Positions 23,266 through 41,855 of a stretch of DNA of 51,401 nucleotides are shown one piece after another. The position numbers were made by a program, and so were the translations under genes. This DNA is from Candidatus Omnitrophota bacterium (GTDB lineage Bacteria; Omnitrophota; Gorgyraeia; Aquiviventales; Aquiviventaceae). The notes beneath the pieces were generated by a model. That model was given only the letters and a program-made list of their open reading frames with translations. It did no database searches and was not told the DNA's origin. Numbering within the stretch: position 1 is the stretch's first letter; each line of letters begins with the position of its first letter. The DNA is taken from the NCBI GenBank assembly GCA_016206685.1, contig JACQRB010000060.1, forward strand, positions 1 to 51,401. Direction: 5' to 3'.

Positions 23266-23276
23266 GGGCTGATGGC

Positions 23277-26354: not shown

Positions 26355-26358
26355 CACG

Positions 26359-27690
26359 TTAGGGGCGACGGGCTGTGGACGACGCGAGGGAGGTTTGCCT
26401 GGCTTCTTCGCGCTGCTTGACGTCCTGCACCGCCTGCGCCACCTGCAGCGGACTCTCCTCCCCGATGAGGATGGATTGGATGCCTTTGTCAAACGCCTCG
26501 ATCACCGTCGAGCGCTCCTGCACGTCGAAGAGCCTGGGGTGCGCGACGGCGTGCATGTCATCCGCAAACGCGGCGAGCGCCGGCGGCAGGTCGGCCGCCG
26601 CAAGCTCGTTGGCGGGAATGTTGTGGGTCGCCTCCAGGAGGAAACGCTGCTGCGGCTGTGCGGTGAGCCACTGCAAAAACGCGACCGCCGCCTCCTGCTT
26701 GGGGGACTTGGCGTTCACCATGAAGCTGGAGCCCGCCCCGCCCCAGGTCACCATCGTGCGGTCCTTGCGGAGGGGGGGCGGCATCATCACCCCGTAGTCG
26801 AGGTCCGGGTTCATCCCCTGATAGACGTTGACCCCCCAGGTCCCGTTGAAGGCGAACACCGCGCGCCCGTTGGCGAAGAGCTGCTCCGCGCGCTTGTTGA
26901 CCATCGTCACGACGCCCTCAGCCGGCAACCCGCTCGCGCGCAGCTGCTCAAAGACGCCCAGCACCTCCAGCCACCGCGGGTCGGTGTACGGGATTTTCCC
27001 TTTAAAGGTCGCCTCCACCTGCTTCTGTCCCATGACATGGATGGCGTAGTCCGTCGCGAAACAGTCAATGAGCCACAGCTCCGCCCACCCGCTCACAAAC
27101 CCCAGCACCCCGTGTTGCTTGGCGAGTGCGCCCACCCCCAAGAACTCCTCCCAGGTTGCGGGCGGATGCTCCGGGTCCAGTCCGAGCTCCTTCAGGAGCC
27201 GCTTGTTGTAAAACATCTGGATGTTCATGACGTCAAGGGGCACGCCATACATCCCCGGGGGCACGCCGTAGGGGTTGTGGTGATCGAAGGTGTTCATGGC
27301 GAGCGCGATTGGGAAGAACGTGCTGCGCCAGGAGGCGCCTCGGGGGGTCACGGGCTTCGCCATCGCGGCATCCAGCGTCAGGAGGTGCCCGGCCCGGATG
27401 AAGCTGGCGAAATCGCGCATCTCGCCCAGCACCCCGAAGATGTCCGGTAACCCGTTGGTCTGCGCGGCGGCGCGCACTTTCTGGATGTACAGGTCGGAGG
27501 GCGCGTAGAGCTCAAACCGCACCGGGATGCCCTGCTGCTGGGTGTAACGCTTGGCCAATTCCGTAAAGGCCTCTTCCCGATCGGTCATCCAGTGCCAGAT
27601 GCGAAGCGGCCGGTCCGTCGCTGAGCGGTTGGCGCGGCCGCATCCCCCAAGCCCGACGAGCACCGCAACCAGCACCGCCGCGCGTCGCAT
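26359..27690 (-). CDS. ABC transporter extracellular solute-binding lipoprotein (family 1, sugar)
   Basis: Lipobox LVGLGGC near the N-terminus. About 440 aa with a family-1 SBP look. Directly upstream of the two permeases. Confidence 0.88.
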   Translation of the reverse strand: MRRAAVLVAVLVGLGGCGRANRSATDRPLRIWHWMTDREEAFTELAKRYTQQQGIPVRFELYAPSDLYIQKVRAAAQTNGLPDIFGVLGEMRDFASFIRAGHLLTLDAAMAKPVTPRGASWRSTFFPIALAMNTFDHHNPYGVPPGMYGVPLDVMNIQMFYNKRLLKELGLDPEHPPATWEEFLGVGALAKQHGVLGFVSGWAELWLIDCFATDYAIHVMGQKQVEATFKGKIPYTDPRWLEVLGVFEQLRASGLPAEGVVTMVNKRAEQLFANGRAVFAFNGTWGVNVYQGMNPDLDYGVMMPPPLRKDRTMVTWGGAGSSFMVNAKSPKQEAAVAFLQWLTAQPQQRFLLEATHNIPANELAAADLPPALAAFADDMHAVAHPRLFDVQERSTVIEAFDKGIQSILIGEESPLQVAQAVQDVKQREEARQTSLASSTARRP

Positions 27691-27696
27691 CGAGCG

Positions 27697-28077
27697 TCAA
27701 TACTCGATGGTGCCCAGCGCTGCGATATCCGGACTGAACGCCACGGCCAGCCCCAGTAGCGCGTCCTCGGCCTGGCGCTCTCCCTCGCGCCGCCCCACCG
27801 GCAACGGCTCCAGGCGCGTCACCCAGCCCTTCCCCAGCACCCGGGTAAATGGGAACAGCCGCGCCTGCTCAGGCGGAATCGCGATCGAGCAGATCACCGC
27901 GTCCCCGAGCTTCAGGACACACGGGGTCTGCGTATAACAAAAGACGCCGGCGAGGCTGAGGTCTTTCACCTGCCCCGTCACCGGCTCAGCAGACGCGTCC
28001 TGGGTGACCGGCCGGATGGCCACCGGCACATCCAGCTCAGCCCGTCGGAATCGCCGCCGTTCCATCGCCGTTTTCAT
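27697..28077 (-). CDS. stand-alone PilZ-domain protein (putative c-di-GMP receptor)
   Basis: 126 aa with the RxxxR motif (RRRFRRAE) and D-x-S-x-x-G (VKDLSLAGVF) at PilZ-typical spacing. Confidence 0.75.
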   Translation of the reverse strand: MKTAMERRRFRRAELDVPVAIRPVTQDASAEPVTGQVKDLSLAGVFCYTQTPCVLKLGDAVICSIAIPPEQARLFPFTRVLGKGWVTRLEPLPVGRREGERQAEDALLGLAVAFSPDIAALGTIEY

Positions 28078-28119
28078 GAACTCACCCGCTCCGTCTCACG
28101 CAACCTTAAATCTTCCAGT

Positions 28120-28148
28120 ATCCTAACAACTTTAAAGAAGTCTTGCAA
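28120..28148 (-). promoter_or_regulatory. candidate sigma70-type promoter for pilZ and the ABC genes
   Basis: Minus strand reads TTGCAA (28148-28143), 17 nt, TAGGAT (28125-28120), in the A/T-richer 87-nt spacer after the giant gene stop. Confidence 0.3.
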
Positions 28149-28164
28149 CTTTGCGAACGGTGGG

Positions 28165-31100
28165 TTACGCCTGGCTCAGCACGGCTTCCTGGTCGCGGAT
28201 CACGGCTTCGGCGGCTGGGGAGATCGCCAGCTCCGGGATGGTAAAGACCCCGGTGCCGTCTGACACCAGATCAAACTTGGCCCGCACGCGCTCGCTGAAC
28301 TGATCCCCTGCTACCGCGGCTTCCGCCGCCGCCATGATCACGTTCCAATCCAGCACGGCGTGGTCTGACGCCGCGCCCGGTCGCAAGGCGAACGCCGCCA
28401 CCTGCTGTCGCGAACGCTGCTCCAGCGCCAACTTCATGTCGCGCGCCCAGTCTTCAGGACCCACCACGAGTGCCACCTGCGCGCCCGGCACGCCCAGGTG
28501 CTCCAGCCGCCCCGGCAGGCTCCTGAGCAGCCCCTCCACACCATCCGCCTCATCCACCCGGAGGAATTGCAGCGACCCTTTCCAGTCCTCCAGCCCCTGA
28601 ATGCCGGCGGTGCGCAGCGCCTCTTGCAGCACGAGTTGCAGGTCGCGCTCAAGTTCCTGCAACGCGATCGCCAGCGGCACTCCGCGCTCCTTCAGTGCCG
28701 CCTCATGAACGATCACGACGCGTGGGTGGTCCATGTCCACCATGGCTTCCGCCTGCTCCGGGGTGGCGAGCGTATTCTCAAACAGCCCTGACAGGGCAGG
28801 ATCGCGCGCCAATGTCGCCTGCGCGATGAGCCGCTCATCCGCCACCGGCGCCACCGCCCCCGGCTGGGCGCGGCTGCTCAGGAATGCCGCCTCGAGCGCC
28901 TCCGCATAGTCCACGATGGCGCCAAGCGCGCCACGCAAGCGGCTCAATACGCTCTCAACCCGTCCCTGCAATTCTTCCGGGATGTCGCTCCGCTCAATCG
29001 CGGCTGTAACCTCACCCACCACCTCGGTCCATTGTCGCTCGAACTCGCCGGCTCGCTGCGTTTCTTGAGCCAGCGCGTTGCGCTCGCCAACTGGCGGGAT
29101 CGGCTGCGACGCGAACCAGTTCATGGTGTCCATCATGAGGCGATCGTGCTGCTGGGCGATGCGCTCATCAATGACTTCAATCATCTCTCTCGGCGCTTCC
29201 TCGAGTCGCAGGAACGCCTGCATTAGAAGATCGCGCCGCTCCTGGAGGCTCAGCTCCACGCCGCCGCGAGGCGCCTTCTTCGAGGGCGCGGGGCTATGCA
29301 TGGCGAGGATGGCAACGAGGTTCGCATCCACCCATCTGGGCGGCGTAGGTCCCTCGAGGCGACCTGTCATCTCATACTCGCCATTGGACAGACGTGAGAA
29401 CCGGGCTCGAGCGATGGAAAGCACGCTGCCCCGCTCGCTTAAGCCGACGATCTCCTCTGGCCACGCCACCCCGACGCTGAGCACCCGAATCGTTTCTCGC
29501 CCAATCGAGGCGTATCGAAATCGTCCACCCCGCACCAACGCCTCAAGGCGCGCCTCGATGCCCGCGTCGTCTTCTGCTGCCTTCGTCACCGGCGCCCCGC
29601 CGCGGAGCCCGCCCGCCCGCAGCGCGGCGAGCGTGCTGCCAAGATAGGGAACGATCTGCTCTTCGAAATTGTGTTGCCGAAGCAGCCCCCTAGCAAATGC
29701 GTCTCGTTTCTCCGGCGGAATGTTGAACTCTTCGGCGAGCGCCAACGCCTGAAGACTGCGGGATTCCAGGAGGCGTCCCCCCACATCACCTGTGACCTCC
29801 TCCGGCTTCATATCTAGCGCCTCGGCGATGGCACGCTTGGCCCGCGCCGTGATCTCCTCGAGCGTCAGCAACGCGGCGGCGGCCTCGGCTTCAATCAGCT
29901 TCGCGCCCACGACATACACAGCATCGACGACGCGGGCCGAATAGCCCCATTCATTGTCGTACCAGAAGAGCTGACGAACGAGATAGCGGTTCCCTCCGAG
30001 TGGCGTCACCTGCGTCCCCTCCTCGAGCAGAATCGAGGATTCCGAACGTCCCACGATCTGCTGCGAGCCAACCAAACCGGCTTCGACGGCGAGAATGCCT
30101 TGCAGCTGATCGGTGGCGGCCAGTTTGCGAAAATGCTCGTTGACCCCTTCAGCAGTCAACGGCATCCTTTCTGGGACCTCGACAATATTTGTGACCACAG
30201 AAATTGAGCCGGTGCCCGTGGGAACGCGCAGCGCCGTTCCGGATAGTTTGCCCGCAAGATCCGGCAGGATCGGCACGGTCGCCCGGTCCGCGCCGGTCTC
30301 GGTGAGGACCATGTTACGCGGAGCTGCTCGCCCCCGTTCCCGCCGCCTGTCGAAGCCATCGGTCAGGCGTTGCGTCCCGGTCACCGCGTGGGTGGTGCCC
30401 AAGACCCCTGCGAGCACACGGTATGGTCCCTGCTTGGCGATGGACATCGGAGGGGCATAGCTATTCGTCGTGCACGAGGCGCAATCGATCACTTCGGCAT
30501 CAGCCGGAAGCTGGTCCTCGTTGACGCCAAGGAGCAGCGAGAAGTCCGCCTTGTGCTCGTCGGCTTTCTTCGCGTCGCTCGGATTCGTCAAGATGACCCT
30601 TTTCGCGCCGGCTTCAAGATGACCGGCCAGGGCCTCCTTCGAGACAAATTCTCCCGTGGCATCCACCGCAATATCCACCTCGTGCCGGACCCACGGGAGG
30701 CCCTTAAGAATCCGCTGGCTATAGACCCAAATTCGCTGACCCTGGATTTCCAGCCAATCTCCGGTCTCATCTTTGCCCAGCTCTATAGGAAGGGAAAATT
30801 CGCCATGCTCAGTATCATGCTGCAGGGCGTACTTCAAGTACTCGGCAGACCGAGCGTTCACGGCCACAACTTGGATCTGATCAGGCCGATGATGCAGCAG
30901 GAGCTGACGCAAAATCGTCAATCCCGTGCGTCCGCCCGCCCCGTTGATCGCGACGCGAATCGGGCGCTTCAGGTGCAGGCCATCAGCGAATTTGCTCGGT
31001 TCCATCAACGAGCCTCTGACAACGCCGCTCTCGCCGCTATCATAGAAGACTTTCAGGTCGATGAGGCTGCCAAGACCGTCCACTTCCTTCACGACCAGGG

Positions 31101-34100
31101 TATCCGCATCGACCACGGCCGTCGCGTTGACATCCTGCACCATGGATGAAGCCTCTGTCGCTTGGACTTGGATCCCCGCAGCCCGGAGCGCTCCTACCAC
31201 ACGGTAGCCCTCGACTTTCTTCGGAACCAGCAAGGTGAGATGCACAAATGTGGGGCCCGGCGTGACATTTACGCCAATTACGGTCCCCGTAGCCTTCGGT
31301 GAACGCCCGACTACAATGTTATTCGGGGGAACCAGCAGGCGCTTCTCGCCCCGATAGGGCACGAGCGGCATCGGCTGATCGGTCGATGACCGCACGACGG
31401 TCGGGACCAACGCAGTCACCCCGCCGAACTCTTCGGATCGAAACACGTCAATGAGCGGCTTCAAGCGTTCAAGCGAGCCCTCGATCTGTTCAGCCACGAA
31501 ACGCGCTTCTGCACCCTGCTGGACTTTCTCGGGAACTTCTTCATAGGATACAAAATGACCTGCGACATAGGTGTACCGGCGGCCATCAATGTCGATAATT
31601 TTCACCCAGTGTTGAACAAATTGAGCGATCCGCTGAGCCGTGTCCACATAGCTGTCCTGCAGCGCCTGAATCCATTTCGGTGGACGCTCCAACGGCTTGT
31701 CGTTCAGGACAGTCAGTGAGTCATCAGGAAGCGCCTGGGGGACGGTCAGCGCGAGTGAGAGGAGATACTGCATCGCCCGCGGATCGCCTTGCTCGGCCAG
31801 TTGGCCTATTTCTTCCAACACCGCGCGATGCACATTGCTCAGGATCTCACGGCCACGCACTTTACCGTTCTCCTCCGATGAAGGCGCGTTGTACCACCAG
31901 AGCGACAAGATCGCTTCCTGGTGCGTGAGCCCGAAGATGCTTTCAAAAATCGGATGGAGCACTGTTTCGGTGACGGCACTCGTGCCCGTCTGCGGGAAAT
32001 AGGTCTTCACGTACTGCTCCGTCATGTAGATCTTGAGGGTAGCGGAGCTTTCCTCATACTCGGATAGCTCATAGGCCCCCCCTTCAAACAGATCGCCGAA
32101 GTGGGTTTGGGTTCCTAAATCGACCAGCACGATCTCAATATTTTTAATCGGTTTCCCTGCATATTCAGGCATCTGAGCGCTGACCGTCAGTCCCAGCTTG
32201 GCGATGCCAGCGGCACCTTCTCCGTTCGACAGAACCCGACCCAGGGCGCTTAACAATTCGGCCTGCTGAGCCGCGCGTACGTCACCGACCATGAACGGTG
32301 GCCGACCGTGACGGTAGAGGAGGTCGCCCATCCGTTGCAGCCAGCCAGGGTGGCTTTCATCGAGGGAACGCTTGCTGGCGGACGCGATCTGCTCGAGCAT
32401 CGCCCGGTGCGCGTCAGACCCCCTGGGAATGTCGCCCACACCGATGCCAGGCAGCCGTAGCGTAATGGCCTTGCCCACTGGCGCGTCGCCGCGCGGACCG
32501 ACCTGCGGTGCCTTCGTCTGGTTGATGAAGGACCACGTGCGCTCAAGGACCTGTTTAACCGTCGCCGAAGGCATTACGTCACCCAGGAGCCCGTAGAACG
32601 TCCCAAGCTGGTCTGCCGGGATGCCGGACTCTGCAGCAAGCGCGCGGGCGATGTTGCGGGACTGCCACGCCACCCATTCTTCGGAACTAACAGACGCATC
32701 TCCTGAGCCGGTCGTTCTCAGGATCAGCTCCCTTAGACTATCCGTAGCGTTGACGTCCTCAGGCTTCACCTTGAGCACCCCGGCGATGACTTTCTTCCCA
32801 TCGCCCAGGAAGTCTTCCTTCGCCGTGGTCGCGCCGCCGTGAGGACCGACCTTCGGGCGGGCGAGCACCAGCGTGAATCGCCTGGCGTCGGAATCGTAGT
32901 CGGCGTTCACAACCCCCAAGTCAGGCAAGGCTTCACCGTCCAGGAACTGGCGAGGATTCGCCACCCGGCGACCGTCCTCCCACGACACATCCAGTACGAT
33001 GCCCTGCTGATGATCGAGCACCTCATGCAAGAAGCCGCGCGCCTGCCGCACGGTCCAAATCGCGCCAGCCGGCAGGGCGTCCTTGCCGCCCGGATACCTG
33101 GCAAGGAGCTGGTCGGTCTTCGCCTGCACCGCGTCCAGCACGGCTCTCGCCTGGGCGATGAAGGCGTCGGCTTGCTTCTCCGACACGCCGAGTTTCTGAA
33201 GCAACGGGTTGGGTCCTTGGTGGAGGGTGGACGCTTGACGCCAAACGCGTCCCCACTCGTGCAAGACCTCAAGCCCCTCCAGGATGAGGGAGGCGAGCGT
33301 CTCGGGCTTGGCGGCTTGCGGGTTTTGCAGCTCCTGCCGGGTCAGCCACAACAAGGTCTCAGCGTACAACTGACGCAAAGGGGTCTGCTGGATTTGCTTG
33401 GGGAATTGGATGGACAACTGGTTCACGATGGTCACGATGGCATACGCCTCGCTGACTTCACCCGGCGCGCCGCCGCCGACACCAGGCAGGTCATACACCC
33501 CCTGCTCCGAATTCCATATCGCGGTGATGTTGTGGTGAGCCTTTTGCCGAATCCGGGTGGGATCAGTCGGATGCTGCTCCCACTCCTCCGTATTGACTAA
33601 CCTGCCGTCTGCGAAGCGAGCTTCCCCCAGCTCAGGCAGTCCAATCCGTTCCTGCGCCACCTGCTCGAATCGCTGAGTATTCTGGCTGATTTCCGGCGCG
33701 CCGTCCTGTTGGGTCAGGCGCTGGCGCAGGAGCGCGCGCCGCTCCTCGAGGCTCACCGCCGCGGGGGGAGTCGTCTCTGGAGCGAGCGCCCGTCCTTTCT
33801 CAAGGAGCGCCTCCGCCTCCACTCGGTCAATACCAAAGCCTTCAACTTGATTCCAGAACAACCGATGGTTGTCTTTTTCATAGACCGCCAACCGACGCAG
33901 GGCGCTCTCGTTGCCCGCCCTCGCTTGCTCAAGCACTTTCAGGAACTGCTGAGAGCTGAGCCCGCCGCCGGTCGGATCTTTGCGCCCTGCTGGAGTGGCC
34001 GTGTAGAACTGGCCTGCGGTTGAACCCCGCAAGGCCAAGGCGTCGGGTGAAGGGGTGCCAGCCATCAGGCGAATGCTATCCCAGTAGCCAGTTCCAGTTT

Positions 34101-37100
34101 CCCGATTACCATCGAACGCCGTGTAGCCGTGCTCCCTCGCCGCCTGCTCTTTGGCTTGGTGCTCGGCATACGCCACCATCCCTCGCAGTCCGACGTCCAG
34201 GGCGAGCTCGTATGTACTATAGGTAATGCCATGAAACCCGAACGTCGTGATGAATTGATACTTGTATCCCAGCTTGGCCAGTTCTTTTTGGAACGTTTCA
34301 AGCTCTTCTGTTCCTAGATGTTTATCCCACGGCAAGTTGCCCGAGAGGTTGAAGGCCAGGGGTTTGCCAGGGTATTTGGCGTGGATCGCTTCGGCGAATT
34401 GCTTCGCATGTTCCATGGAGATTGCATGGTCCTCAAACCACAGCAAGTCTGAGTAGGGCGCGAACTCGAGCGCCGTGGCAATCGCGCGTTCGATGCCTGG
34501 CCTGACCAGGTAGAGCTGATCGCGGTTCCTCAATGGTGCCCACGTCCCCCGTTCGCCTGCTTTGAGTTCCGTCACAAATCTCCCTGGGGTGATTTCCACC
34601 TCTTTCCACTCCCCGGCAAACCCGTTTGCAACAGCTTGGTCATAGGTCATTTCCTCGCGGTCATTCGTGACTCCCAGAATAAACGACCGGTCCCGAGGAT
34701 CATCCCTGAGGAGGAACTGGGCGTGGAGCGCGTCGGTGCGTCCAATAATCACAAACGGCACCCCCATCACGTCCCCGGCCAATCGTTGACCCTTCAGGCC
34801 GGCAATCATTTTCGTGGTCGTGGTATTGCACGCCCCTTTGAGATGTCCACAGACCTTATCTTCTGGAACTTGATTCTCGTCGTGGCCTATGCCCGCACCC
34901 GCTTTGATGACCGCCCGCGTTTTCACGAAGGCATGCCGCTCGCTGCCAAGCGCTTCAAAATCCACGACATGGAGGGGCCGCCAATCCTTGCGGGTACCCG
35001 GCTGACCTTGCAAGGCGGCTTGACGTGCGGTAAATTGCGCGGCGTTGTTGACCCGACGCACCGTCCTGACCTGCGTCGCCGGTGAGGAGTAGAGACTGAG
35101 GTCAGAGTAGATCTCCTCGTCATCGTTATTATCCGCCGCGTCGTTCCACCCACTCCCGTAAGTCCCCAGAATAGCCTTGGTCTTCCCCATGCGCTTGAGT
35201 TGCTGGCGCGCTTGGAGGACCTGCGCCACTTGTTGGCTTGTGTAGACGCCCAATCCGAAGATGAACTCCTCGGGATCCTTACCATAAACGATCTCCCGGA
35301 ACTGCTCCGCGTTCTCCCTGGCAGTCGCGTAGGTTTCAATATCCAACGCCCCACGCAGCCTCAGGACGGCCTCGGCCATGGACTTCGGGCGCTGCTCCGG
35401 CGGCAGGTCGGCCGGGTAGAACTGCACAAAATCTTCCCAGGTGTAATCGCGCTTGATCCCGTAGAGCGCTTCCTCTTTTTTCCACTGTGCCTCGAGCTCC
35501 TCGGCTTCCCGTTGCAGTTCAGAGGTCGCAGGCACCGGTTGAATGAACGACGCCTCATCGGGAGCTTTGGCCATGTCCTCTTGCATGAGAGAGATCGGGA
35601 TGCCCAGCAGTACCGCCGCGCGCTCCGCCGCCTGCTCGCCTGTCAGCTCTCCGAGATACACCTGCGCCAGCAGCCCACGCAGCACCGGAGCTTTCTCGGC
35701 GCGCTCCGAGAGAATGTTGACTCTGCGCTCAAGTAACGCATCGGAGAACGACGCAACGGCGTCGCGATGCTCTGCCGGCACCCGCGCCAGAGCGTCGGCT
35801 GCCTGCTGGGTTTCTCTCTCCAGAGCCGCCGCGGCGGCTTGTTTCTGTTCTTGATCCCGAATCCACTGGATGTCCTGGCCAATCTTGCCCAGATCAGTTG
35901 TTGACTCGGTTTGCTTGGGGGCGGTTTGCGAATCGCTGCCAAACTTTTCGACATAGGCGATGATCTGATCAACAGTTCTCTGCTCGCGCAAGCCGTGATA
36001 GAACGCCTCGAGATCGACCAGCGGGATGAAGATGCCGAATTCTCCCTCGACCAGATTCGATCCGATGGCCCCGAGATGGGACGCTACCTCTAAATCCCCC
36101 GTCACCGCCTCAAGGCTCAGACCTAACGCGGCGGCAACGGCTCGCTTCACGTTCCCTGCAATGTCTTCTCTGTCCGTCGTCGCGCCGCCGCCGAGCAGTT
36201 TCCCTTGCTGTTTGAGCAGGGCGGTGGCGAGCGTTATGGCGTTCGGATCTGTCGGTTCAGTAGAGAGCCGGCTGATTAACTGCGCAGCCTGGCCCGCGAT
36301 CTCATCTTGTCCGGCGTACGTGGCGGAGGTCTTCAGCCGTCCCAAGTCGCGCAGGAGGACCTTCGGGTCGACTGCCGGCGCGGCGGGCGCTGCAGCCGGT
36401 CCGTAGCTGCTCCGGACGAGCTGCAGGTACCCTTGTCCGGGCTCCTGCGGATTCGACGCGAAGACCAGGGTGTTCACATGGGAGACCGCGCCTTCCGGCT
36501 GCACACCCGGCACATCGAATGGGAGTCTCTGGTCGGTGCGCCCGTCGCTCGCGAAGGTGAAGCTGCCGGCGATAGGCTCGGTGACCTGGCGTGACGAGAA
36601 GATCTTCCCAGCAAGCACCTCATTGATATCCCCATACGCTGCTCGGTAGCCGATGAGCTTCGTTTTAACTTTGGCTGCCTCCGGGTCCGACCAGTCGTCC
36701 TTCAACGCCATGCCTTTCTTCACGTTGGGGCTGACGACCTGAAATCCGGCGTAAGCACCGTCGCCGGTATAGGCTGAAGCGATAAGGGTGTTCCAGACCG
36801 CCTCCGTCATTCCGGAACGCCGCAAGAAAATCCGCAGCGGCCCTCCCTTCACGCCCAGCGTGGCGGCGACCGCCGGCTGGACCGTGCCTTCGGAGATCAC
36901 CTCATACTGGAGTCCGGTCCGTTCGCTGATGGCCTTCAGCTCCGCCACATCACCGGTATCCGCCGTGAGCGTTGTCACGTGCACCCGGCTGAGATCAGCC
37001 TCGCCATTGAGCGCTGCGATTCGTGAAATCAGCGTCTCAATCCCAAGACTTGGGTTGAGAAATTCCTCGATCGACGCAACCTGGTGCAGAGTTAACACCG

Positions 37101-39735
37101 CAGCCTCCAGCGCCGGGTTGACGCGCGCGACCACCATCAGCGCCCGCGCTTCATCCGGGAAGCTGCCAAACAGCTTGGCGCCCGGTCCCACGGCTTTGAT
37201 GGACGACGCGCCGGGGTCGCCGAACACGAAGACCGTCGTCCCCTCGATGGGATCGTCCACGGACCATGTCGGTCTGCCCTGCGGATCGCCGACCACCATA
37301 CCCGCTTCATGCCCACCGGCGATTTCGCCTTTGGTCTCATAGTTCAGCAGCGTCTCCCGACGATGTGAGAGGGCGGCGACATCGTCGTCAACGCGCTGTG
37401 CGACCAGATCGGCGTCGGCTTTGATCTGGTCAATCCGGTCCTTATCCGCTTTCTTATCCAACCCCTCCGCCTGGCCGCGGTAGCCTGCCTGCACTGTCTT
37501 GATTGCCATCATCTGCGTCGAGAGCTGGGAGTAACCGGCATCTTCCAGTGGGGAGAAACCATCACCCGGCAGTCGTCCCGCGAGAAACTGCGTCGTGAAG
37601 TCGCGGTCCACCTCATGACTCAAGGGCACGACGCCGAATTTCTCCTGCAACCGGTTCCGCAGCTCAGCTTCAGCCAACGCCTGGGCGAGCGCCAGCGGCG
37701 GGGAGCGGGGGGCATCCACGAACGCTTCGGTGTGCCGGGCGATGAGGGCTCTGGTGTCAGCCGCCCGCAAGCGCGTGAAGATATCGGCAAATTTCGCTTC
37801 GAGCGTGGTGCTCACCGCTTGCTCCGCGTCGTGGGGCAAGTTCCAGAACAACTGGGTCCGTCCTGGCAGACCCGGGAACTTCTTGATGGCGTCTTTGCGG
37901 ATACTGGCTTGTTTCTGAGGATTCTCGGGTTTGCCCGCTGCTTCCCAATCTTTCTGGAAGAGCTCCTCGCCGACCGACGCGAGGAGCGTCTTCAAGGCTT
38001 CCGGCAGCGCCTCGTGACCAAGAATAAGATTCTGGAACTCGGTAGCGAGGTGGACCTCGGCGGTGTCATGCGCGGGGAAGTTATTGAAGAGCTCCGGCGC
38101 AAGGGTCGAGGCACCATGTTGCACTGACCCCGCCATATCGCCGAACTCTTCCGAGCGAATGAGGTCAGAGACTTGCTGGAGGAGGGGAAAGGCGACCGGT
38201 ACGTCGCGTATCAGCTTGCCTTGGTCATCGAACCGCCCCCCATGAGCGGCGCCTGTCTGGATGCTGAACGCGTCAGGTCCTGCGACACCCCGTTTGGCGA
38301 GCTCGGCTTTGAGCCCTGTCAAGAACGCTCGGACTTGGCTGAGGGTGGTGTTGGTCTCCTTGCCGACTTCACCAACCTCCACGCCAAGGCCAATGTTGTC
38401 ATCCCCGTGAATTTCTTTGGCGTTCGTCCGGGCAAACTCAATGAGCGCTGCCGAGACGGCGATGTTGTCCTTCTGTTGCTCGAGATCGAGCTCAAACTGT
38501 TGACGTTCCCGTTCGGCTGCGTCGGGCACCCCCGCCTCGGTGAGGAACTTTGGTGTGCCTTCAATCGTCGAGGCGTCAATATCAATGTTCCGGAATCCGG
38601 CGCGCAAGCCTTCCACGATGAGCCCCTTAATCCGTCCAATTTCCTTGGCGGGATCGGCTCGGTGGTTCTTGGCATTGAGCTGGGTGTGGTCCATCTTGAG
38701 GAAGACCGGCGCATCATGCCGTTCCAGCACCGCAGCGGCAAGAAGTTCTGCGGCGTAGGCTGCGTACCGACGGCCGGTATAACCCGTTTCGGAAGCCGCG
38801 AGCTCAAACACCATCGCCCCCACACCCTGCTTGTGAGCGGCGCGAAGGGCGGCGCGCGCGGTCACGAGTCCGCCCACGCGGATGTTCATCGCAGGGATCG
38901 TCCGCTGTGTCACCTCGCGTCGGCCCATCGCCTTGTAGTAGTCCCTGATCGAGGCGGAATAGACGCCGTACGAGGGCGCCAATTCGCGGATAGCCCATTG
39001 AGCGGCTTCGCGCACGGTCTGGTCGTCATGGAGCACCGCGTCATACGCCAGGTCGGCAAACACCGGGCGCAAGGCCTCTTTAACCTTGACCCGTTCCTTG
39101 ACGAACTCCGCCTGGTCCTCGCGCACCCGCAGGCGGGTTGCGCCTCGAGCATCCACATATCGCTCGGTAAAGGGTTCGAGTCGTCGCAGGAGGTCCCCAA
39201 CCGTCGCAAACCGCTCTTTATGCACATAGGTGCCGGTTTCAGGGTTGACTGCGTCGAAGACATCCGCCGAGACGAAGCGTGCGAGCGCCTCCTTTGTGGT
39301 AAGTGCCTCGGCGGCGAGGTCTTCAATCTGGTTGATCGTCCTGGCGGGATGTTGGGCGGCGGTCGCGGCGACGACCAGCCCCGCATCCACGGACCGGACC
39401 TCAGCCGCGGGATCCAAACGCTCCCGCAGGAGCGCCTGGAACCGCTGGACGGCGTCCTCAGAGACCTGGTCAACCTTCAGCCGGTGCGTCACGGAGTGCT
39501 GCTCATTCGCCAACTCCTTGACGGCTTGACGGGCGGCTCTCTTGAGCTCATCTAATCGCGGACGCAGGAGATCTGCGCGTAACTGCCAGGTCGTGTTGAC
39601 GTCAGCCCGCGCCGCCGGCGATCGCAAGAGCGTCTGCGCATACGCCAGCGGTTGCGCCTGCGAAACTGAGAACACGACAGCGACGAAGGATGCCCACCGC
39701 TTGGTCCACGCGCCCCTCAACCATAATCTCCTCAT
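28165..39735 (-). CDS. giant 3,856-aa multidomain protein: signal-peptide-like N-terminus, then class II aldolase-like, GlpX-like, ACP-like, isocitrate lyase-like, ACP-like, unknown ~700-aa region, GAPDH, ACP-like and unknown C-terminal region
   Basis: Single uninterrupted frame with sensible protein-like composition throughout. Recognisable enzyme motifs are listed in the sub-features below. N-terminus: MRRLWLRGAWTKRWASFVAVVFSVSQAQPLAYA-Q. Confidence 0.85.
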   Translation of the reverse strand: MRRLWLRGAWTKRWASFVAVVFSVSQAQPLAYAQTLLRSPAARADVNTTWQLRADLLRPRLDELKRAARQAVKELANEQHSVTHRLKVDQVSEDAVQRFQALLRERLDPAAEVRSVDAGLVVAATAAQHPARTINQIEDLAAEALTTKEALARFVSADVFDAVNPETGTYVHKERFATVGDLLRRLEPFTERYVDARGATRLRVREDQAEFVKERVKVKEALRPVFADLAYDAVLHDDQTVREAAQWAIRELAPSYGVYSASIRDYYKAMGRREVTQRTIPAMNIRVGGLVTARAALRAAHKQGVGAMVFELAASETGYTGRRYAAYAAELLAAAVLERHDAPVFLKMDHTQLNAKNHRADPAKEIGRIKGLIVEGLRAGFRNIDIDASTIEGTPKFLTEAGVPDAAERERQQFELDLEQQKDNIAVSAALIEFARTNAKEIHGDDNIGLGVEVGEVGKETNTTLSQVRAFLTGLKAELAKRGVAGPDAFSIQTGAAHGGRFDDQGKLIRDVPVAFPLLQQVSDLIRSEEFGDMAGSVQHGASTLAPELFNNFPAHDTAEVHLATEFQNLILGHEALPEALKTLLASVGEELFQKDWEAAGKPENPQKQASIRKDAIKKFPGLPGRTQLFWNLPHDAEQAVSTTLEAKFADIFTRLRAADTRALIARHTEAFVDAPRSPPLALAQALAEAELRNRLQEKFGVVPLSHEVDRDFTTQFLAGRLPGDGFSPLEDAGYSQLSTQMMAIKTVQAGYRGQAEGLDKKADKDRIDQIKADADLVAQRVDDDVAALSHRRETLLNYETKGEIAGGHEAGMVVGDPQGRPTWSVDDPIEGTTVFVFGDPGASSIKAVGPGAKLFGSFPDEARALMVVARVNPALEAAVLTLHQVASIEEFLNPSLGIETLISRIAALNGEADLSRVHVTTLTADTGDVAELKAISERTGLQYEVISEGTVQPAVAATLGVKGGPLRIFLRRSGMTEAVWNTLIASAYTGDGAYAGFQVVSPNVKKGMALKDDWSDPEAAKVKTKLIGYRAAYGDINEVLAGKIFSSRQVTEPIAGSFTFASDGRTDQRLPFDVPGVQPEGAVSHVNTLVFASNPQEPGQGYLQLVRSSYGPAAAPAAPAVDPKVLLRDLGRLKTSATYAGQDEIAGQAAQLISRLSTEPTDPNAITLATALLKQQGKLLGGGATTDREDIAGNVKRAVAAALGLSLEAVTGDLEVASHLGAIGSNLVEGEFGIFIPLVDLEAFYHGLREQRTVDQIIAYVEKFGSDSQTAPKQTESTTDLGKIGQDIQWIRDQEQKQAAAAALERETQQAADALARVPAEHRDAVASFSDALLERRVNILSERAEKAPVLRGLLAQVYLGELTGEQAAERAAVLLGIPISLMQEDMAKAPDEASFIQPVPATSELQREAEELEAQWKKEEALYGIKRDYTWEDFVQFYPADLPPEQRPKSMAEAVLRLRGALDIETYATARENAEQFREIVYGKDPEEFIFGLGVYTSQQVAQVLQARQQLKRMGKTKAILGTYGSGWNDAADNNDDEEIYSDLSLYSSPATQVRTVRRVNNAAQFTARQAALQGQPGTRKDWRPLHVVDFEALGSERHAFVKTRAVIKAGAGIGHDENQVPEDKVCGHLKGACNTTTTKMIAGLKGQRLAGDVMGVPFVIIGRTDALHAQFLLRDDPRDRSFILGVTNDREEMTYDQAVANGFAGEWKEVEITPGRFVTELKAGERGTWAPLRNRDQLYLVRPGIERAIATALEFAPYSDLLWFEDHAISMEHAKQFAEAIHAKYPGKPLAFNLSGNLPWDKHLGTEELETFQKELAKLGYKYQFITTFGFHGITYSTYELALDVGLRGMVAYAEHQAKEQAAREHGYTAFDGNRETGTGYWDSIRLMAGTPSPDALALRGSTAGQFYTATPAGRKDPTGGGLSSQQFLKVLEQARAGNESALRRLAVYEKDNHRLFWNQVEGFGIDRVEAEALLEKGRALAPETTPPAAVSLEERRALLRQRLTQQDGAPEISQNTQRFEQVAQERIGLPELGEARFADGRLVNTEEWEQHPTDPTRIRQKAHHNITAIWNSEQGVYDLPGVGGGAPGEVSEAYAIVTIVNQLSIQFPKQIQQTPLRQLYAETLLWLTRQELQNPQAAKPETLASLILEGLEVLHEWGRVWRQASTLHQGPNPLLQKLGVSEKQADAFIAQARAVLDAVQAKTDQLLARYPGGKDALPAGAIWTVRQARGFLHEVLDHQQGIVLDVSWEDGRRVANPRQFLDGEALPDLGVVNADYDSDARRFTLVLARPKVGPHGGATTAKEDFLGDGKKVIAGVLKVKPEDVNATDSLRELILRTTGSGDASVSSEEWVAWQSRNIARALAAESGIPADQLGTFYGLLGDVMPSATVKQVLERTWSFINQTKAPQVGPRGDAPVGKAITLRLPGIGVGDIPRGSDAHRAMLEQIASASKRSLDESHPGWLQRMGDLLYRHGRPPFMVGDVRAAQQAELLSALGRVLSNGEGAAGIAKLGLTVSAQMPEYAGKPIKNIEIVLVDLGTQTHFGDLFEGGAYELSEYEESSATLKIYMTEQYVKTYFPQTGTSAVTETVLHPIFESIFGLTHQEAILSLWWYNAPSSEENGKVRGREILSNVHRAVLEEIGQLAEQGDPRAMQYLLSLALTVPQALPDDSLTVLNDKPLERPPKWIQALQDSYVDTAQRIAQFVQHWVKIIDIDGRRYTYVAGHFVSYEEVPEKVQQGAEARFVAEQIEGSLERLKPLIDVFRSEEFGGVTALVPTVVRSSTDQPMPLVPYRGEKRLLVPPNNIVVGRSPKATGTVIGVNVTPGPTFVHLTLLVPKKVEGYRVVGALRAAGIQVQATEASSMVQDVNATAVVDADTLVVKEVDGLGSLIDLKVFYDSGESGVVRGSLMEPSKFADGLHLKRPIRVAINGAGGRTGLTILRQLLLHHRPDQIQVVAVNARSAEYLKYALQHDTEHGEFSLPIELGKDETGDWLEIQGQRIWVYSQRILKGLPWVRHEVDIAVDATGEFVSKEALAGHLEAGAKRVILTNPSDAKKADEHKADFSLLLGVNEDQLPADAEVIDCASCTTNSYAPPMSIAKQGPYRVLAGVLGTTHAVTGTQRLTDGFDRRRERGRAAPRNMVLTETGADRATVPILPDLAGKLSGTALRVPTGTGSISVVTNIVEVPERMPLTAEGVNEHFRKLAATDQLQGILAVEAGLVGSQQIVGRSESSILLEEGTQVTPLGGNRYLVRQLFWYDNEWGYSARVVDAVYVVGAKLIEAEAAAALLTLEEITARAKRAIAEALDMKPEEVTGDVGGRLLESRSLQALALAEEFNIPPEKRDAFARGLLRQHNFEEQIVPYLGSTLAALRAGGLRGGAPVTKAAEDDAGIEARLEALVRGGRFRYASIGRETIRVLSVGVAWPEEIVGLSERGSVLSIARARFSRLSNGEYEMTGRLEGPTPPRWVDANLVAILAMHSPAPSKKAPRGGVELSLQERRDLLMQAFLRLEEAPREMIEVIDERIAQQHDRLMMDTMNWFASQPIPPVGERNALAQETQRAGEFERQWTEVVGEVTAAIERSDIPEELQGRVESVLSRLRGALGAIVDYAEALEAAFLSSRAQPGAVAPVADERLIAQATLARDPALSGLFENTLATPEQAEAMVDMDHPRVVIVHEAALKERGVPLAIALQELERDLQLVLQEALRTAGIQGLEDWKGSLQFLRVDEADGVEGLLRSLPGRLEHLGVPGAQVALVVGPEDWARDMKLALEQRSRQQVAAFALRPGAASDHAVLDWNVIMAAAEAAVAGDQFSERVRAKFDLVSDGTGVFTIPELAISPAAEAVIRDQEAVLSQA
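29641..29862 (-). other. domain: ACP-like module 3
   Basis: AKRAIAEALDMKPEEVTGDVGGRLLESRSLQALALAEEFNIPPEK is colinear with the ACP helix I-II-III pattern (S in RSL at the DSL position). Confidence 0.45.
29900..30969 (-). other. domain: glyceraldehyde-3-phosphate dehydrogenase (approx. aa 2923-3278)
   Basis: IRVAINGAGGRTG (Rossmann motif); CASCTTNSYAP with the catalytic Cys at 30463-30477; TTHAVTGTQRLTDG; TETGADRA; WYDNEWGYSARVVD. Confidence 0.85.
32720..32820 (-). other. domain: ACP-like module 2 with a DSL motif
   Basis: GKKVIAGVLKVKPEDVNATDSLRELIL. The pre-serine helix and D-S-L match the phosphopantetheine attachment-site pattern. Confidence 0.4.
34066..35453 (-). other. domain: isocitrate lyase-like (ICL/PEP-mutase superfamily; approx. 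aa 1428-1890)
   Basis: YGSGWNDAA...YSDLSLYSS; the catalytic-loop signature KVCGHLKG at 34833-34856 (canonical K-[KR]-C-G-H); IIGRTDA; APYSDLLWFE; FNLSGNLPW; GYKYQFITTFGFH; EHGYTAF...TGTGYWDSI. Confidence 0.8.
35938..36170 (-). other. domain: acyl-carrier-protein-like four-helix module 1 (degenerate)
   Basis: NVKRAVAAALGLSLEAVTGDLEVASHLGAIGSNLVEGEFGIFIP...TVDQIIAYVEK is colinear with the ACP pattern (...EEVT...LGADSLD..EL...EEEFD.EIP...AIDYI). Confidence 0.45.
36470..37530 (-). other. domain: class II FBPase (GlpX)-like, divergent (approx. aa 735-1088)
   Basis: SVDDPIEGTTVFVFGDPGASSIKAVGPGA parallels GlpX DIAVDPIEGTRMTAMGQANALAVLAVG. The downstream segments are colinear, but the GEGEIDEAP and GGAPEG motifs are degenerate. 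Confidence 0.5.
37750..39000 (-). other. domain: class II (metal-dependent) fructose/tagatose-bisphosphate aldolase-like (approx. aa 245-660 of the giant ORF)
   Basis: From memory, these segments parallel E. coli FbaA. TIPAMNIRVG matches ALPAVNCVG. PVFLKMDHT matches PVILHTDHC. NIDIDAST matches HMIDLSE. LGVEVGEVGKE matches LEIELGCTGGEED. IQTGAAHGG matches ASFGNVHGV. VQHGAST matches FHGGSGS. Confidence 0.7.
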
Positions 39736-39756
39736 GCGGGATGCTCTCCTATGATG

Positions 39757-41364
39757 TTAGTGTTGCGCAACGTCCGCCGGCGTTGGTCTCAGTGACGCCG
39801 CGACGGCCTGCACGTCCTCGAAACTCCCATGACCGCTTTTATACTTCAACACGGCGCGGTAGAGCCGGTCATCGCTCGTGTGGGTGACTTTCGGAACCAC
39901 GGCGACCACCCCCACCCCGCGATCCGTCAAGCGCTGCGTAATCTCTGGCGCATGGAATCCGCCGGTGATCAACACGGCAAGCGGCTCCCGCGCCTGGGTC
40001 AGCTTGTCAACGGCACGAGCCGCCAGCGCCTCATCGCGCGCCTGCGCGGCTTCATAAAATTGTTGCAGGGTTGGAAGGGCGGTGCTCAATTCAGACAGTC
40101 GGGTGAAGTCCGGAGCGGGCAACCCCTGGAGGGTCAGTTGCTGCGTCAAGAAATTCGTCCAGTGCAACGCCAAACCCGCCAGGGCAAGCTCCTGAACCCG
40201 TTGATACTCCTCTGGCGAGAGTTTCAGCTCGATGAGTTTCTCGACGAGATCGAATTGCTCGCTGATGAGGCGCAACTGCCGGCTGGCTGGCGTCGAGAGC
40301 AGGCGCTGGCGCAGCCGCTCGGCGAGTTGGTCCAGCTCTCCAGCCAGGAGCGTCGGCTTGAGCTGGGCGCTCTCGTTGACGTAGCTGAGATAGCGAGCCA
40401 GGCGAGGATAGGTGTCCAGGGCGATGTGGGCGTGCTGGGCGAGGTCCTCAAGCTGCGCGTAGAACACCTCTCGCCTCACCGTCCCCTCTTGCATCGCCTT
40501 GGCGCGGGCGAGGAACTCGTTGAAGGACGCGGCATCCACCTGGCGTTTGAGCTGCCTCAAGAAGGCTTGCTGCTCGGTTTGGACGCCCTCAGGCTGGATG
40601 GACTCTTCCAGATGACGAATGGCGCGGAAGCGCGTGACGTGAGGCAGGTCGCCGGTCGCGACGCCGGTTCGCGCCGCCAGACCCGCGAGGAACTCGACAT
40701 GCTCCGCCAACCCCATCTGATGGTCCGCAAAGGCGCGGACCTTGGCGTCAAGTTCGCGCACGGCGGGATCGAAGAGCCGGGGCTCCAGCGCGTCAACCGC
40801 CTGACGCGCGGACGCGACGATGGGCGCCAGGCGCTCCCGCAACGACTCCACCTCCAGGAATGCCTGCACGTTGCGATCGTAGAGATCCTGCTGCTCGACG
40901 CCCCAGAGGATCAAGGGAGCGTCGGAGGCGATGTCGAGATATTCCTCCGCGCTGAGGATGCCGAGCTTCAGATACTTCTCCGCCACCTGCTTGCGGTTCT
41001 CCAGGGGACCGTAGCTGCGCAGGTACGAGAGGCTCACGTCGCCCTCGCCCCCTTCCACCAGAATCAGCTTCAGCCCGTGCTCCTGGATCAGCCGCTGCAG
41101 GATGCCGATCAGGTGTTGTTGGGCTTCGGGGTTGGTGTGGGCTTCTTGCACGTGGATGATGGTCGGGGCGCCTGGAGTGGCGGGGGGATGGGTCTCCACG
41201 ACGTAGCCAAGCTCAGCAGGGATCGTCAGGTTGGCAAGTGGAGCGGCAGGGGCGGTAGCGGCGTCCAGAGAGGAAACAAGGAGGATGGCCGCGACCATGG
41301 CCACCCATGCCATGCGGACGCAGTACACTATCTTCTGAGAGCCGTCTTCCCCCATGGACCTCAC
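39757..41364 (-). CDS. secreted 535-aa hypothetical protein; possible Tiki/TraB/ChaN-like fold (weak)
   Basis: Hydrophobic N-terminus MAWVAMVAAILLVSSL. Contains TIIHVQEAHTNPEAQQHL...LILVEGG early and VLITGGFHAPEITQRL near the C-terminus, reminiscent of the GE-H ... G-x-H bipartite motifs of that superfamily. The start is uncertain: GTG 41364, ATG 41355 or ATG 41313. Confidence 0.6.
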   Translation of the reverse strand: MRSMGEDGSQKIVYCVRMAWVAMVAAILLVSSLDAATAPAAPLANLTIPAELGYVVETHPPATPGAPTIIHVQEAHTNPEAQQHLIGILQRLIQEHGLKLILVEGGEGDVSLSYLRSYGPLENRKQVAEKYLKLGILSAEEYLDIASDAPLILWGVEQQDLYDRNVQAFLEVESLRERLAPIVASARQAVDALEPRLFDPAVRELDAKVRAFADHQMGLAEHVEFLAGLAARTGVATGDLPHVTRFRAIRHLEESIQPEGVQTEQQAFLRQLKRQVDAASFNEFLARAKAMQEGTVRREVFYAQLEDLAQHAHIALDTYPRLARYLSYVNESAQLKPTLLAGELDQLAERLRQRLLSTPASRQLRLISEQFDLVEKLIELKLSPEEYQRVQELALAGLALHWTNFLTQQLTLQGLPAPDFTRLSELSTALPTLQQFYEAAQARDEALAARAVDKLTQAREPLAVLITGGFHAPEITQRLTDRGVGVVAVVPKVTHTSDDRLYRAVLKYKSGHGSFEDVQAVAASLRPTPADVAQH

Positions 41365-41370
41365 GCCTCT

Positions 41371-41694: not shown

Positions 41695-41737
41695 CGCCTC
41701 TCCTCCCATGGTGGTCTGCCTATCGAAAAGTTCACTG

Positions 41738-41766: not shown

Positions 41767-41855
41767 GTGTTTTTTTATATGTGCGAGATGCACATTCTCT
41801 CCACGCATATCTCAGTTATAACTATTTTATTATCAATATCTTATATACATACAAC

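Follow-up and report, generated by a model that had tools for sequence, protein, structure and literature searches.

Gene A of the 51,401-nt contig JACQRB010000060.1 (GenBank assembly GCA_016206685.1), which we analysed in full and hereafter call the window, codes for a protein of 3,856 residues in which modules of four central-carbon enzyme families are strung together behind a signal-peptide-like N-terminus. Gene A is real and specifies a giant protein of modular build. We favour the view, at a probability of roughly 55%, that its product is a Sec-exported, catalytically competent multi-enzyme chain that would act outside the cytoplasm and evolve by module swapping. In the proposed model, an N-terminal signal peptide, probably cleaved, would carry the chain across the cytoplasmic membrane by the Sec route. 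The exported part would resemble beads on a string, with one module each for a class II aldolase-like enzyme, a sugar-bisphosphatase of the GlpX type, an isocitrate lyase (ICL) and a type I glyceraldehyde-3-phosphate dehydrogenase (GAPDH), plus ~2,160 residues of unrecognised sequence. Such a chain, probably active, would act outside the cytoplasm of its producer; its site might be the periplasm, the cell surface, or the inside or surface of another cell. The features of A on which this view is built are as follows.

28165..39735 (including the stop codon), minus strand: giant open reading frame (ORF) A, 3,856 aa, uninterrupted
39750-39746, minus strand: Shine-Dalgarno-like AGGAG, ~11 nt 5' of the ATG at 39735
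39637..39735, minus strand: signal-peptide-like N-terminus (aa 1-33), with a basic n-region, a hydrophobic core and an AxA site
37666..39093, minus strand: module of the class II aldolase superfamily (aa 215-690, of which the Pfam core covers aa 279-570), recognised by Pfam F_bP_aldolase and kept ligands
36406..37548, minus strand: GlpX-type (class II fructose-bisphosphatase, FBPase) module (aa 730-1110), recognised by a family profile and by AlphaFold/Foldseek
34003..35391, minus strand: ICL module (aa 1449-1911), recognised by Pfam ICL and Protein Data Bank (PDB) matches, with KVC(1629)GH and a ~49-aa insertion
29881..30960, minus strand: type I GAPDH module (aa 2926-3285), recognised by Pfam, TIGR01534 and PDB matches, with C(3085)ASC(3088)TTN and TTHA

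The reality of the ORF is supported by several types of data. Over its interval, the other two minus-strand frames contain 113 and 144 stop codons, and the three frames of the opposite strand contain 42-130. Coding-type composition extends over the whole length of A, with a GC content of 0.64-0.72 at the first codon position, 0.39-0.49 at the second and 0.65-0.78 at the third (GC3) in every 300-codon window. The start codon lies 21 nt from the stop codon of the upstream gene C. The Logan assembly of run SRR12113385 contains a 13.9-kb contig that matches window positions 27494-41400 with a single mismatch (99.993% identical) and encodes the exact protein A, and the nr database contains a 3,851-aa version of it. 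No long DNA repeats able to cause a misjoin were found inside the ORF. Its sole DNA repeat is 36 nt long and 81% identical (window positions 29225-29260 and 33728-33763); it encodes '(V/A)(E/V)LSL(Q/E)ERR(D/A)LL' at aa ~3496 and ~1992, the first of these copies following 'PRGG'. A BLAST self-comparison showed no internal repeats in A and no similarity between A and the products of the neighbouring genes B and C.

Separate genes might in principle have been joined through misassembly or the loss of stop codons. The sequence is indeed a metagenome-assembled contig, and the GC content of the 30-38 kb region, 0.59-0.62, differs from the ~0.63-0.70 of most of the upstream flank. However, we consider an artefact effectively refuted by the second assembly, by the uniform coding periodicity without an internal stop over 11.5 kb, by the lack of repeats available for a misjoin and by the existence of dozens of independent giants with a like architecture (see below). 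In addition, the linkers between the modules are made of hundreds of coding-like residues and not of intergenic DNA. Thus, the single uninterrupted ORF reported in the first-pass annotation stands, and the misjoins or frameshifts that it had named as a risk did not materialize. The contig is plainly chromosomal, given that it carries rodA, PBP2, mreC, mreB, aroA, bioD and a class I/II aminotransferase gene that we take to be bioF, followed by sugar-utilisation genes.

We assessed each of the enzyme modules separately. The ICL module is recognised by Pfam ICL (PF00463; 148.3 bits for a cutoff of 26, E 3.7e-43), and when compared alone with the PDB it matches 7cmx (E 1.8e-72) over chain residues 24-423, i.e. 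the whole enzyme. The alignment shows that the SGW, D..E, HxE, RTD and N.S motifs are kept, with one S-to-N change; most of the residues that presumably bind Mg and substrate, by comparison with the Mycobacterium tuberculosis ICL, are aligned in A. Its signature is KVCGH, in which the Cys and the His are kept and the second position is V instead of K/R. Among 5.8 billion proteins, the closest relatives of this module are ordinary ICLs of ~425 aa, with 36-42% identity. The GAPDH module is likewise well supported by Pfam (Gp_dh_N, PF00044, 63.1 bits for a cutoff of 31.7, E 3e-17; Gp_dh_C, PF02800, 75.1 bits for a cutoff of 24.4, E 6e-21), and it matches PDB entry 8wwz over its full length (E 1.5e-58). 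Its best PDB matches are Gap2 and chloroplast-type enzymes. The residue that follows '...VVAVN' is Ala and not the Asp of NAD-specific enzymes, a pattern that presumably resembles that of the NADP-using, gluconeogenic GapB/Gap2 enzymes.

The GlpX-type module is more divergent. Scanned alone, the segment scored 14.4 bits with Pfam GlpX (PF03320), below the cutoff of 27 (E 0.019, partial coverage of the profile). We therefore rely on a family profile made of the A module and ten homologs from other giants, for which all nine PDB matches are class II FBPases or SBPases (best 1ni9, E 4.2e-8). An AlphaFold model computed with the family alignment as input had a mean predicted local distance difference test value (pLDDT) of 92.4 and a predicted template modelling score (pTM) of 0.92. 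In a Foldseek search of the PDB with this model, the top 24 of 24 hits were GlpX-type enzymes (3d1r, E 9e-20, template modelling scores 0.71/0.83), and IMPase and SuhB came next, only at E ~3e-3. Identity with solved GlpX structures is 15-18%. The metal-site columns D, E, D-P-I-E-G-T (D-x-x-E-x-T) and E are invariant in the 11 modules. In the subgroup to which A belongs, GGAPE is replaced by RSGMTE, and the aspartates of DGD are replaced by E and T.

The first module is recognised by Pfam F_bP_aldolase (PF01116) with 31.9 bits for a cutoff of 25.5 (E 1.3e-7, aa 279-570). In an alignment of 98 sampled homologs, the zinc and catalytic residues D349-H350, H498, H540 and H562 are kept in at least 90 of the 98 sequences, and A has all of them. 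No NCBIfam aldolase model matched A, the stand-alone homologs of the module score 28-32 bits against the cbbA model for a cutoff of 215.6, and in the PDB the family profile matches GatZ and AgaY alone (E ~1e-3). Because curated aldolases match it only distantly, this module is, as judged from its sequence, a deeply branching member of the class II aldolase superfamily and not a canonical fructose-bisphosphate aldolase (FBA). The corresponding clade consists of uncharacterised proteins of ~460 aa.

Altogether, A harbours four enzyme families in one copy each; every assignable domain is a central-carbon enzyme. The four enzymatic steps are non-consecutive, and the link from the glyoxylate shunt to gluconeogenesis that the first-pass annotation read into the set is conjectural. 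These results largely bear out the module assignments of the first-pass annotation. ICL and GAPDH are secure at the levels of Pfam and PDB, GlpX is upheld at the levels of fold and profile even though Pfam remains below its cutoff, and the aldolase holds as a member of the class II superfamily but not as a canonical FBA. The catalytic motifs that it had quoted, i.e. KVCGH, CASCTTN, the His of THA, and DH/AHG/QHG, are all present. Since the modules keep their catalytic residues, they are probably active enzymes.

We next consider the evidence for export. The N-terminus of A reads MRRLWLRGAWTKRW, then ASFVAVVFSV, then SQAQPLAYA followed by Q, so that the basic n-region, the hydrophobic core and the AYA-Q site described in the first-pass annotation are all there. 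The core has 10 residues, which is too short to score as a transmembrane (TM) helix, and no other TM segments were found along the chain. The basic residues before the hydrophobic core predict that the N-terminus would be inside and the bulk of the protein outside. We looked for similar starts in the relatives of A with a crude rule that requires a basic n-region and an 11-residue core that begins in the first 30 residues and has a mean Kyte-Doolittle value of at least 2.0. Of 43 full-length giants, 37 have a signal-peptide-like start of the same layout, against 0 of 89 stand-alone homologs, and three of the six giants that fail the rule look like they have signal peptides by eye. The combination of an export signal with cofactor-dependent enzymes, which had been called paradoxical, is thus real, but it is a property of the whole family and not an oddity of A. 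In most giants, an 'L-[RA]-x-P-[SA]-A'-type motif, TLLRSPAA in A, is found a few residues past the A-x-A-like site; no curated model of N-terminal sorting signals matches the N-terminal motif of the family.

The Cys content points independently to export. Protein A has four Cys in 3,856 aa (0.10%), namely C1629, C1636, C3085 and C3088, all located in the active-site stretches of ICL and GAPDH; C1629 and C3088 are the catalytic Cys of the two enzymes, respectively. Its giant neighbour B has two Cys in 3,173 aa and the product of gene C one in 535 aa, while the other genes of the window code for proteins with 0.11-2.4% Cys, mostly 0.3-1.8%, the PilZ protein being the richest with 2.4%. In the family as a whole, giants contain 0.23% Cys on average versus 0.70% for stand-alone homologs, and five giants of 1.8-3.9 kaa (thousand amino acids), P0014 (3,907 aa), P0016, P0012, P0017 and P0011, have none. 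The loss of dispensable Cys is as expected in an oxidising extracytoplasmic environment. The retention of active-site Cys only suggests, in addition, that the chemistry is still under selection.

To describe the family, we used aa 1-1200 of A in an exhaustive phmmer search of 1.84 billion representatives, which yielded 836 matches, 156 of them below 1e-30. The aldolase-like module occurs both in stand-alone proteins of ~430-480 aa and inside proteins of 1,000-4,900 aa. The GlpX-like module is found almost exclusively inside giants, with 40-48% identity. A Pfam survey of 16 giants revealed PGK, PFK, GAPDH, enolase, TIM, transketolase, transaldolase, FBA, GatZ-like, PPDK, GPI, glutamate dehydrogenase and FTHFS domains. 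Contrary to what the first-pass annotation implied, the fusion is therefore not unique, since dozens of giants combine PGK, PFK, GAPDH, enolase, TIM, transketolase, transaldolase, PPDK and other modules. HEAT, LRR and WD40 repeats are found within or beside relatives of A. The giants to which we refer below are the following.

P0153, 4,729 aa, locus L012 10001-24190 (GCA_054039695.1, JBPLAK010000010.1): PPDK, GAPDH, TIM, PGK and enolase plus the aldolase-like module; signal-peptide-like start
P0014, 3,907 aa: GlpX-like module, transaldolase and transketolase
P0006: enolase plus the aldolase-like module; adjoins a second giant with a phosphoglycerate-mutase-family domain
P0046, 1,619 aa: domain similar to the product of gene C, GlpX-like module and class I aldolase

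A scan of 185,579 GTDB species genomes retrieved two loci only, both in metagenome-assembled genomes (MAGs) labelled 'uncultured Planctomycetia bacterium', and the scan of GTDB genomes with the whole protein A gave no relative. The giant clusters that we looked up have one or two members each at 90% identity. A is one member of a large, fast-diversifying family in Planctomycetia-labelled MAGs and other uncultured bacteria known from metagenomes. Giant fusions seem to cluster in the genomes of the relatives of A. Large multi-domain ORFs were seen beside related giants, coding for a 1,630-aa protein with DHDPS, response-regulator and mannitol-dehydrogenase domains (L006 3029-7921), a 1,901-aa protein with a phosphoglycerate-mutase-family domain (L010 6853-12558) and a 1,677-aa WD40 protein (L004 12405-17438).

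The comparison of A with its closest relatives revealed that the locus is hypervariable. Logan contig L002 (SRR22388350) is 96% identical to the window at the DNA level over 1,660 bp spanning the PilZ and solute-binding protein genes downstream of A, and there is a further 31-nt perfect match that begins ~16 nt past the stop codon of the giant gene. Within the giant gene itself, 68% identity was found over 418 bp, and similarity is otherwise undetectable. For another contig, L003, identity is 87.5% and is confined to the flank and the final ~175 bp of the giant gene. Over the final 284 residues, the three alleles share 40-48% identity, compared with 95-97% for the PilZ proteins, but they keep small islands, PRGGVELSL in A, L002 and L003, and RGGAPV in A and L002. 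Ahead of the conserved C-terminal block, the L002 protein has an archaeal-type GAPDH (motif SCNTTGL; PDB 2czc, E 1.2e-19) where A has the type I enzyme. The exchange of two types of GAPDH at the same position argues for selection of the GAPDH function together with a rapid turnover of cassettes.

In a more distant JGI locus (L007/L008 96-9909, Ga0209515_10001776), whose PilZ protein is 68% identical, the upstream ORF codes for a product of over 2,585 aa that includes a metallo-beta-lactamase domain, and it is followed by a 716-aa ORF. This upstream giant has no similarity to A, and synteny does not extend to that relative; the giant genes found upstream of pilZ seem to be interchangeable. The GC content of window positions 28000-51400, which comprise genes A, C and B, is 0.56-0.64 versus ~0.63-0.70 in most of the housekeeping flank (1-28000), and the GC3 values of A and B are 0.72 versus 0.79-0.88 in four other genes checked (0.79 for C). 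These lower values fit a separate evolutionary history of the region or frequent recombination. In the model that we propose, central-carbon modules would be recruited, swapped and replaced like cassettes; such turnover is typical of proteins involved in interactions with cells or with the environment and not of housekeeping metabolism.

Hypervariability, the signal peptide and Cys depletion are also typical of surface proteins, and the chain might be a surface scaffold or adhesin built of enzyme folds, in which binding or self-oligomerising modules form a mesh through their homo-oligomer interfaces and catalysis is irrelevant. Since ICL and GAPDH assemble obligatorily as tetramers and the FBA and GlpX enzymes also form oligomers, several oligomerising modules per chain could cross-link; the repeats found in or beside relatives of A would suit such a role. 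However, the sole Cys residues retained in 3,856 aa belong to two active-site stretches, and metal and catalytic residues are invariant across ~100 aldolase-like and 11 GlpX-like modules. In addition, the replacement of type I GAPDH by type II with its active-site Cys argues that selection bears on chemistry and not on shape. A purely structural role is thus very unlikely.

Several observations weigh against our preferred view of an exported and active chain. All four modules score under the cutoffs of the NCBIfam equivalogs, which indicates that activity or specificity may have changed. The ICL module scores 299.9 for a cutoff of 562 (NF011645) and 242.5 for a cutoff of 275.9 (TIGR01346), and the GAPDH module 254.8 for a cutoff of 367.2 (TIGR01534, E 1.2e-75). 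The KVCGH sequence of the ICL module departs from the K[KR]CGH signature. ICL and GAPDH are normally homotetramers, an awkward arrangement within one chain of 3,856 aa. P0153 is encoded among housekeeping genes (ftsH, folP, cdaA, pdxJ, acpS ... ATP synthase), with neither pilZ nor importer genes downstream, which fits a housekeeping role for some members of the family. Finally, GAPDH needs NAD(P), and the PGK, PFK and PPDK domains of related giants use ATP, and no supply of NAD(P) or ATP is known in the periplasm or outside cells. This cofactor supply is the main difficulty of the export hypothesis, and it leaves room for the surface scaffold as well as for two other explanations.

One of these is a membrane-tethered cytoplasmic metabolon, in which the N-terminus would be an uncleaved anchor and the enzymes, on the membrane side that faces the cytoplasm, would channel gluconeogenesis and glyoxylate-shunt intermediates. 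It would account for intact catalytic residues in enzymes that need cytosolic cofactors, for a module set that is coherent and gluconeogenic, and for the fusion of nearly all of lower glycolysis in P0153 among housekeeping genes. Many Omnitrophota giants that have TM helices only are read as cytoplasm-facing in a 2026 preprint (10.64898/2026.06.07.730766). Conversely, the N-terminus of A has basic residues before a core of ~10 residues and then an AxA site, and the near-total loss of Cys has no rationale in a reducing cytoplasm. Housekeeping genes would not be only 40-48% identical where their neighbours are 95-97% identical, and stand-alone homologs never carry the signal. We consider a cytoplasmic metabolon unlikely on these grounds.

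The other explanation stems from short lineage-specific motifs that are repeated 5-15 times in many relatives of A, [ST][AS]GLEE, AGVEQ, RASTSG, GEKSYPAG or DGG[AK]. They were found in P0014, P0016, P0011, P0018, P0015, P0050, P0057 and P0007. The motif first occurs directly behind the signal peptide in the GLEE, AGVEQ and DGG lineages, and in five proteins two copies bracket the GlpX-like module exactly. These junction motifs could be sites of cleavage, modification or cassette recombination. A itself has no strongly recurrent junction motif.

Thus, A might be a polyprotein precursor that is exported and then cut between its modules, either by the Tiki/ChaN-like product of gene C or by a double-glycine (C39-type) peptidase encoded elsewhere. 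The junction motifs of the relatives would be consistent with such processing, as would the fusion of a C-like domain to the N-terminus of P0046 and the preservation of RGGAPV in A and L002 and of PRGGVELSL in all three divergent alleles. For Omnitrophota giants, West-Roberts et al. 2023 (bioRxiv 10.1101/2023.11.21.568195) also propose that C39 or S8 peptidase domains perform such a cleavage. Against this possibility, A lacks a recurrent motif of this kind, its GG[AVL] sequences are not enriched over a rough composition-based estimate, and no protease domain was recognised in A, B or C, the ChaN/Tiki match of C scoring 20.9 bits, below the cutoff. Processing of A into separate enzymes is therefore improbable in our opinion.

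If A is exported as we propose, the giants might form a distinct class of secreted 'metabolic cassette' proteins, i.e. Sec-exported, Cys-free, hypervariable chains of active extracytoplasmic enzymes. They would perhaps work in or on a prey or partner cell that supplies NAD(P), ATP and substrates, and divert its carbon to compounds imported via the adjacent ABC system, the junction motifs being sites of processing or cassette exchange. This wider scenario is tentative and, taken as a whole, unlikely.

The genes around A are arranged as follows.

41856..51377, minus strand: gene B, 3,173 aa, with ~15 hydrophobic segments and AceK kinase and regulatory domains
39757..41364, minus strand: gene C, 535 aa, signal-anchored or secreted, with an N-terminal hydrophobic segment and a weak ChaN/Tiki-superfamily match
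27697..28077, minus strand: PilZ-domain gene, 126 aa, immediately downstream of A
24589..27690, minus strand: sugar-type ABC importer, with a solute-binding protein (26359-27690) and two permeases
further downstream, minus strand: TPR protein, 902-aa protein, GH2-like 1,180-aa protein, GH94, ROK and LacI

B, C, A, the PilZ gene, the importer genes and those beyond are all on the minus strand and separated by short gaps, and upstream of B the contig extends for a further 24 nt. The AceK domains of B are well supported (E 4e-60 and 2e-57; PDB 3eps, 2e-62). In B, the kinase match (aa 2177-2441) precedes the best regulatory stretch (aa 2455-2575, positions 137-257 of the profile), whereas in canonical AceK the regulatory domain comes first. 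That an AceK-like giant lies next to one with an ICL recalls the pairing of aceA with aceK. No informative relative of C was found in the PDB; C is homologous to the N-terminal ~420 residues (aa 38-418) of giant P0046 (E 6e-21), a domain-fusion link to the family, and it may be a processing or partner protein. A 676-aa ORF antisense to C (39829-41859, plus strand), without a Pfam match, is most likely a spurious long ORF of high-GC DNA. We propose that A likely acts together with the polytopic giant B, secreted C, the PilZ protein and the sugar importer, which would make this region an interaction or nutrient-acquisition locus. The GH2-like 1,180-aa protein (0.25% Cys) and the 902-aa protein (0.11%), encoded at 17015-23280 on the minus strand, are also Cys-poor and may be exported partners.

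Giant proteins with related features have been reported in Omnitrophota. West-Roberts et al. 2023 (10.1101/2023.11.21.568195) describe Omnitrophota giants of more than 30 kaa, 'Archaeovorins', whose less common domains, predicted to be extracellular, include TIM, GPI, FBPase, PGM/PMM, FBA and PPDK. They also report pilZ followed by genes of solute-binding proteins, permeases and glycoside hydrolases downstream of the giant genes, and a cluster resembling a type II secretion system upstream. The 2026 preprint (10.64898/2026.06.07.730766) deals with Omnitrophota proteins that reach at least 10 kaa and defines among them a class named 'multi-enzyme metabolic cluster'. It states that 94% of the giants carry TM helices or a signal peptide and that the sequences of most are unique, and it reports no ICL in any of 176 complete Omnitrophota genomes. 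Another preprint mentions a protein of 71,949 aa with PGK and TIM domains. The first-pass annotation, which knew of no such fusion in the literature, is not supported on this point, as giants with glycolytic domains encoded before pilZ and sugar-import genes appear in these preprints.

A resembles the Omnitrophota giants of these preprints in being a long single ORF tiled with different enzyme domains, none of which dominates by copy number, and in its downstream genes for PilZ, a solute-binding protein, permeases and glycoside hydrolases (GH2-like, GH94). In contrast, A is 3.9 kaa long, below the length of that class, whose members have 10-147 kaa. It has no TM helices where Omnitrophota giants have numerous ones (B has ~15), its assignable domains are all central-carbon enzymes, and it harbours an ICL, the enzyme reported absent from the complete genomes. 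The SecA_DEAD, C39/S8 peptidase, glycosyltransferase, methyltransferase and NUDIX domains of those giants were not detected in A or B by Pfam. The GC content of its contig (64-66%) and the Planctomycetia labels of the closest genome loci also set A apart from the described Omnitrophota giants; Omnitrophota are usually lower in GC, and the high GC of A may be a further difference. Thus, A is a small, ICL-bearing variant of a kind of giant protein known only from recent preprints. We conjecture that B, C and A together (7,564 aa), with TM-rich and enzyme-rich parts, may be a split, miniature counterpart of the Omnitrophota giants. In open-access text, including the sections of both giant-protein preprints that we searched, we found no paper on the family of 1-5 kaa proteins, its conserved N-terminus, its Cys depletion, its junction motifs or its strain-level hypervariability.

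Other comparisons help define A. Its modules share folds and catalytic or metal residues with the stand-alone AceA, type I GAPDH (with the Gap2/GapB type as the nearest), GlpX and class II ketose-bisphosphate aldolases, but they are strongly diverged and fused in one predicted-exported chain, unlike those cytosolic enzymes. Bifunctional fusions such as the archaeal FBP aldolase/phosphatase or TIM-PGK have two domains, are cytosolic and perform consecutive steps of one pathway. The covalent linkage is alike, whereas A has four or more modules for non-consecutive steps, long linkers, an export signal and hypervariability. The moonlighting GAPDH, enolase and FBA found at the surface of pathogens are ordinary, unfused cytosolic proteins without a signal peptide. 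They similarly place glycolytic enzymes outside the cytoplasm, but in the case of A dedicated paralogous modules appear to have export built in.

Central-carbon enzymes are textbook examples of soluble cytosolic housekeeping proteins, and here diverged, dedicated copies of them form giant chains behind an export signal. The A-type chains are stripped of non-catalytic Cys, and close strains swap their modules at the pace seen for surface antigens. Should the modules work outside the cytoplasm, they would represent an extracytoplasmic metabolic capacity, or a metabolic effector strategy, without a characterised precedent. Through the family, a bacterium of high GC content, with Planctomycetia labels on its nearest genome-level relatives, is connected with the giant proteins of predatory Omnitrophota. 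With 1-5 kaa, its members are small enough for laboratory expression, compared with giants of 30-150 kaa, and could serve to probe the role of the latter. This analysis also defined two uncharacterised enzyme clades, the class II aldolase-like proteins of ~460 aa and the divergent GlpX-like modules found almost only in giants.

Finally, ~2,160 residues of A (2,163) are unassigned (aa 1-214, 1120-1448, 1912-2925 and 3286-3856), for which nothing was found in Pfam and no PDB sequence match at E values up to 5. The regions and elements of note are the following.

30961..34002, minus strand: unassigned region (aa 1912-2925), with sub-regions common to other giants
28168..29880, minus strand: unassigned C-terminal region (aa 3286-3856), hypervariable between close relatives, which keeps the 'RGGAPV' and 'PRGGVELSL' islands
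~35926-36186, ~32536-32835 and ~29626-29868, minus strand: three short helical elements (aa ~1184-1270, ~2301-2400 and ~3290-3370), similar by eye to acyl carrier proteins

The three helical elements share 'GATT.[RK]ED..G..K[RK]A[VI]A..L...E.V', and in two of them the DSL-like position is occupied by Ser. Their identification as acyl carrier proteins is not supported, as Pfam is silent and phmmer with Escherichia coli AcpP gives 0-4 bits. No C-terminal domain shared among the giants was found. A single-sequence AlphaFold prediction of aa 1911-2925 was uninformative (pLDDT 40.9). Parts of this central region recur in the family, aa 2416-2660 being common to P0081 and P0087 and aa 2735-2925 to P0153, and the giants that share these stretches carry GAPDH modules of their own.

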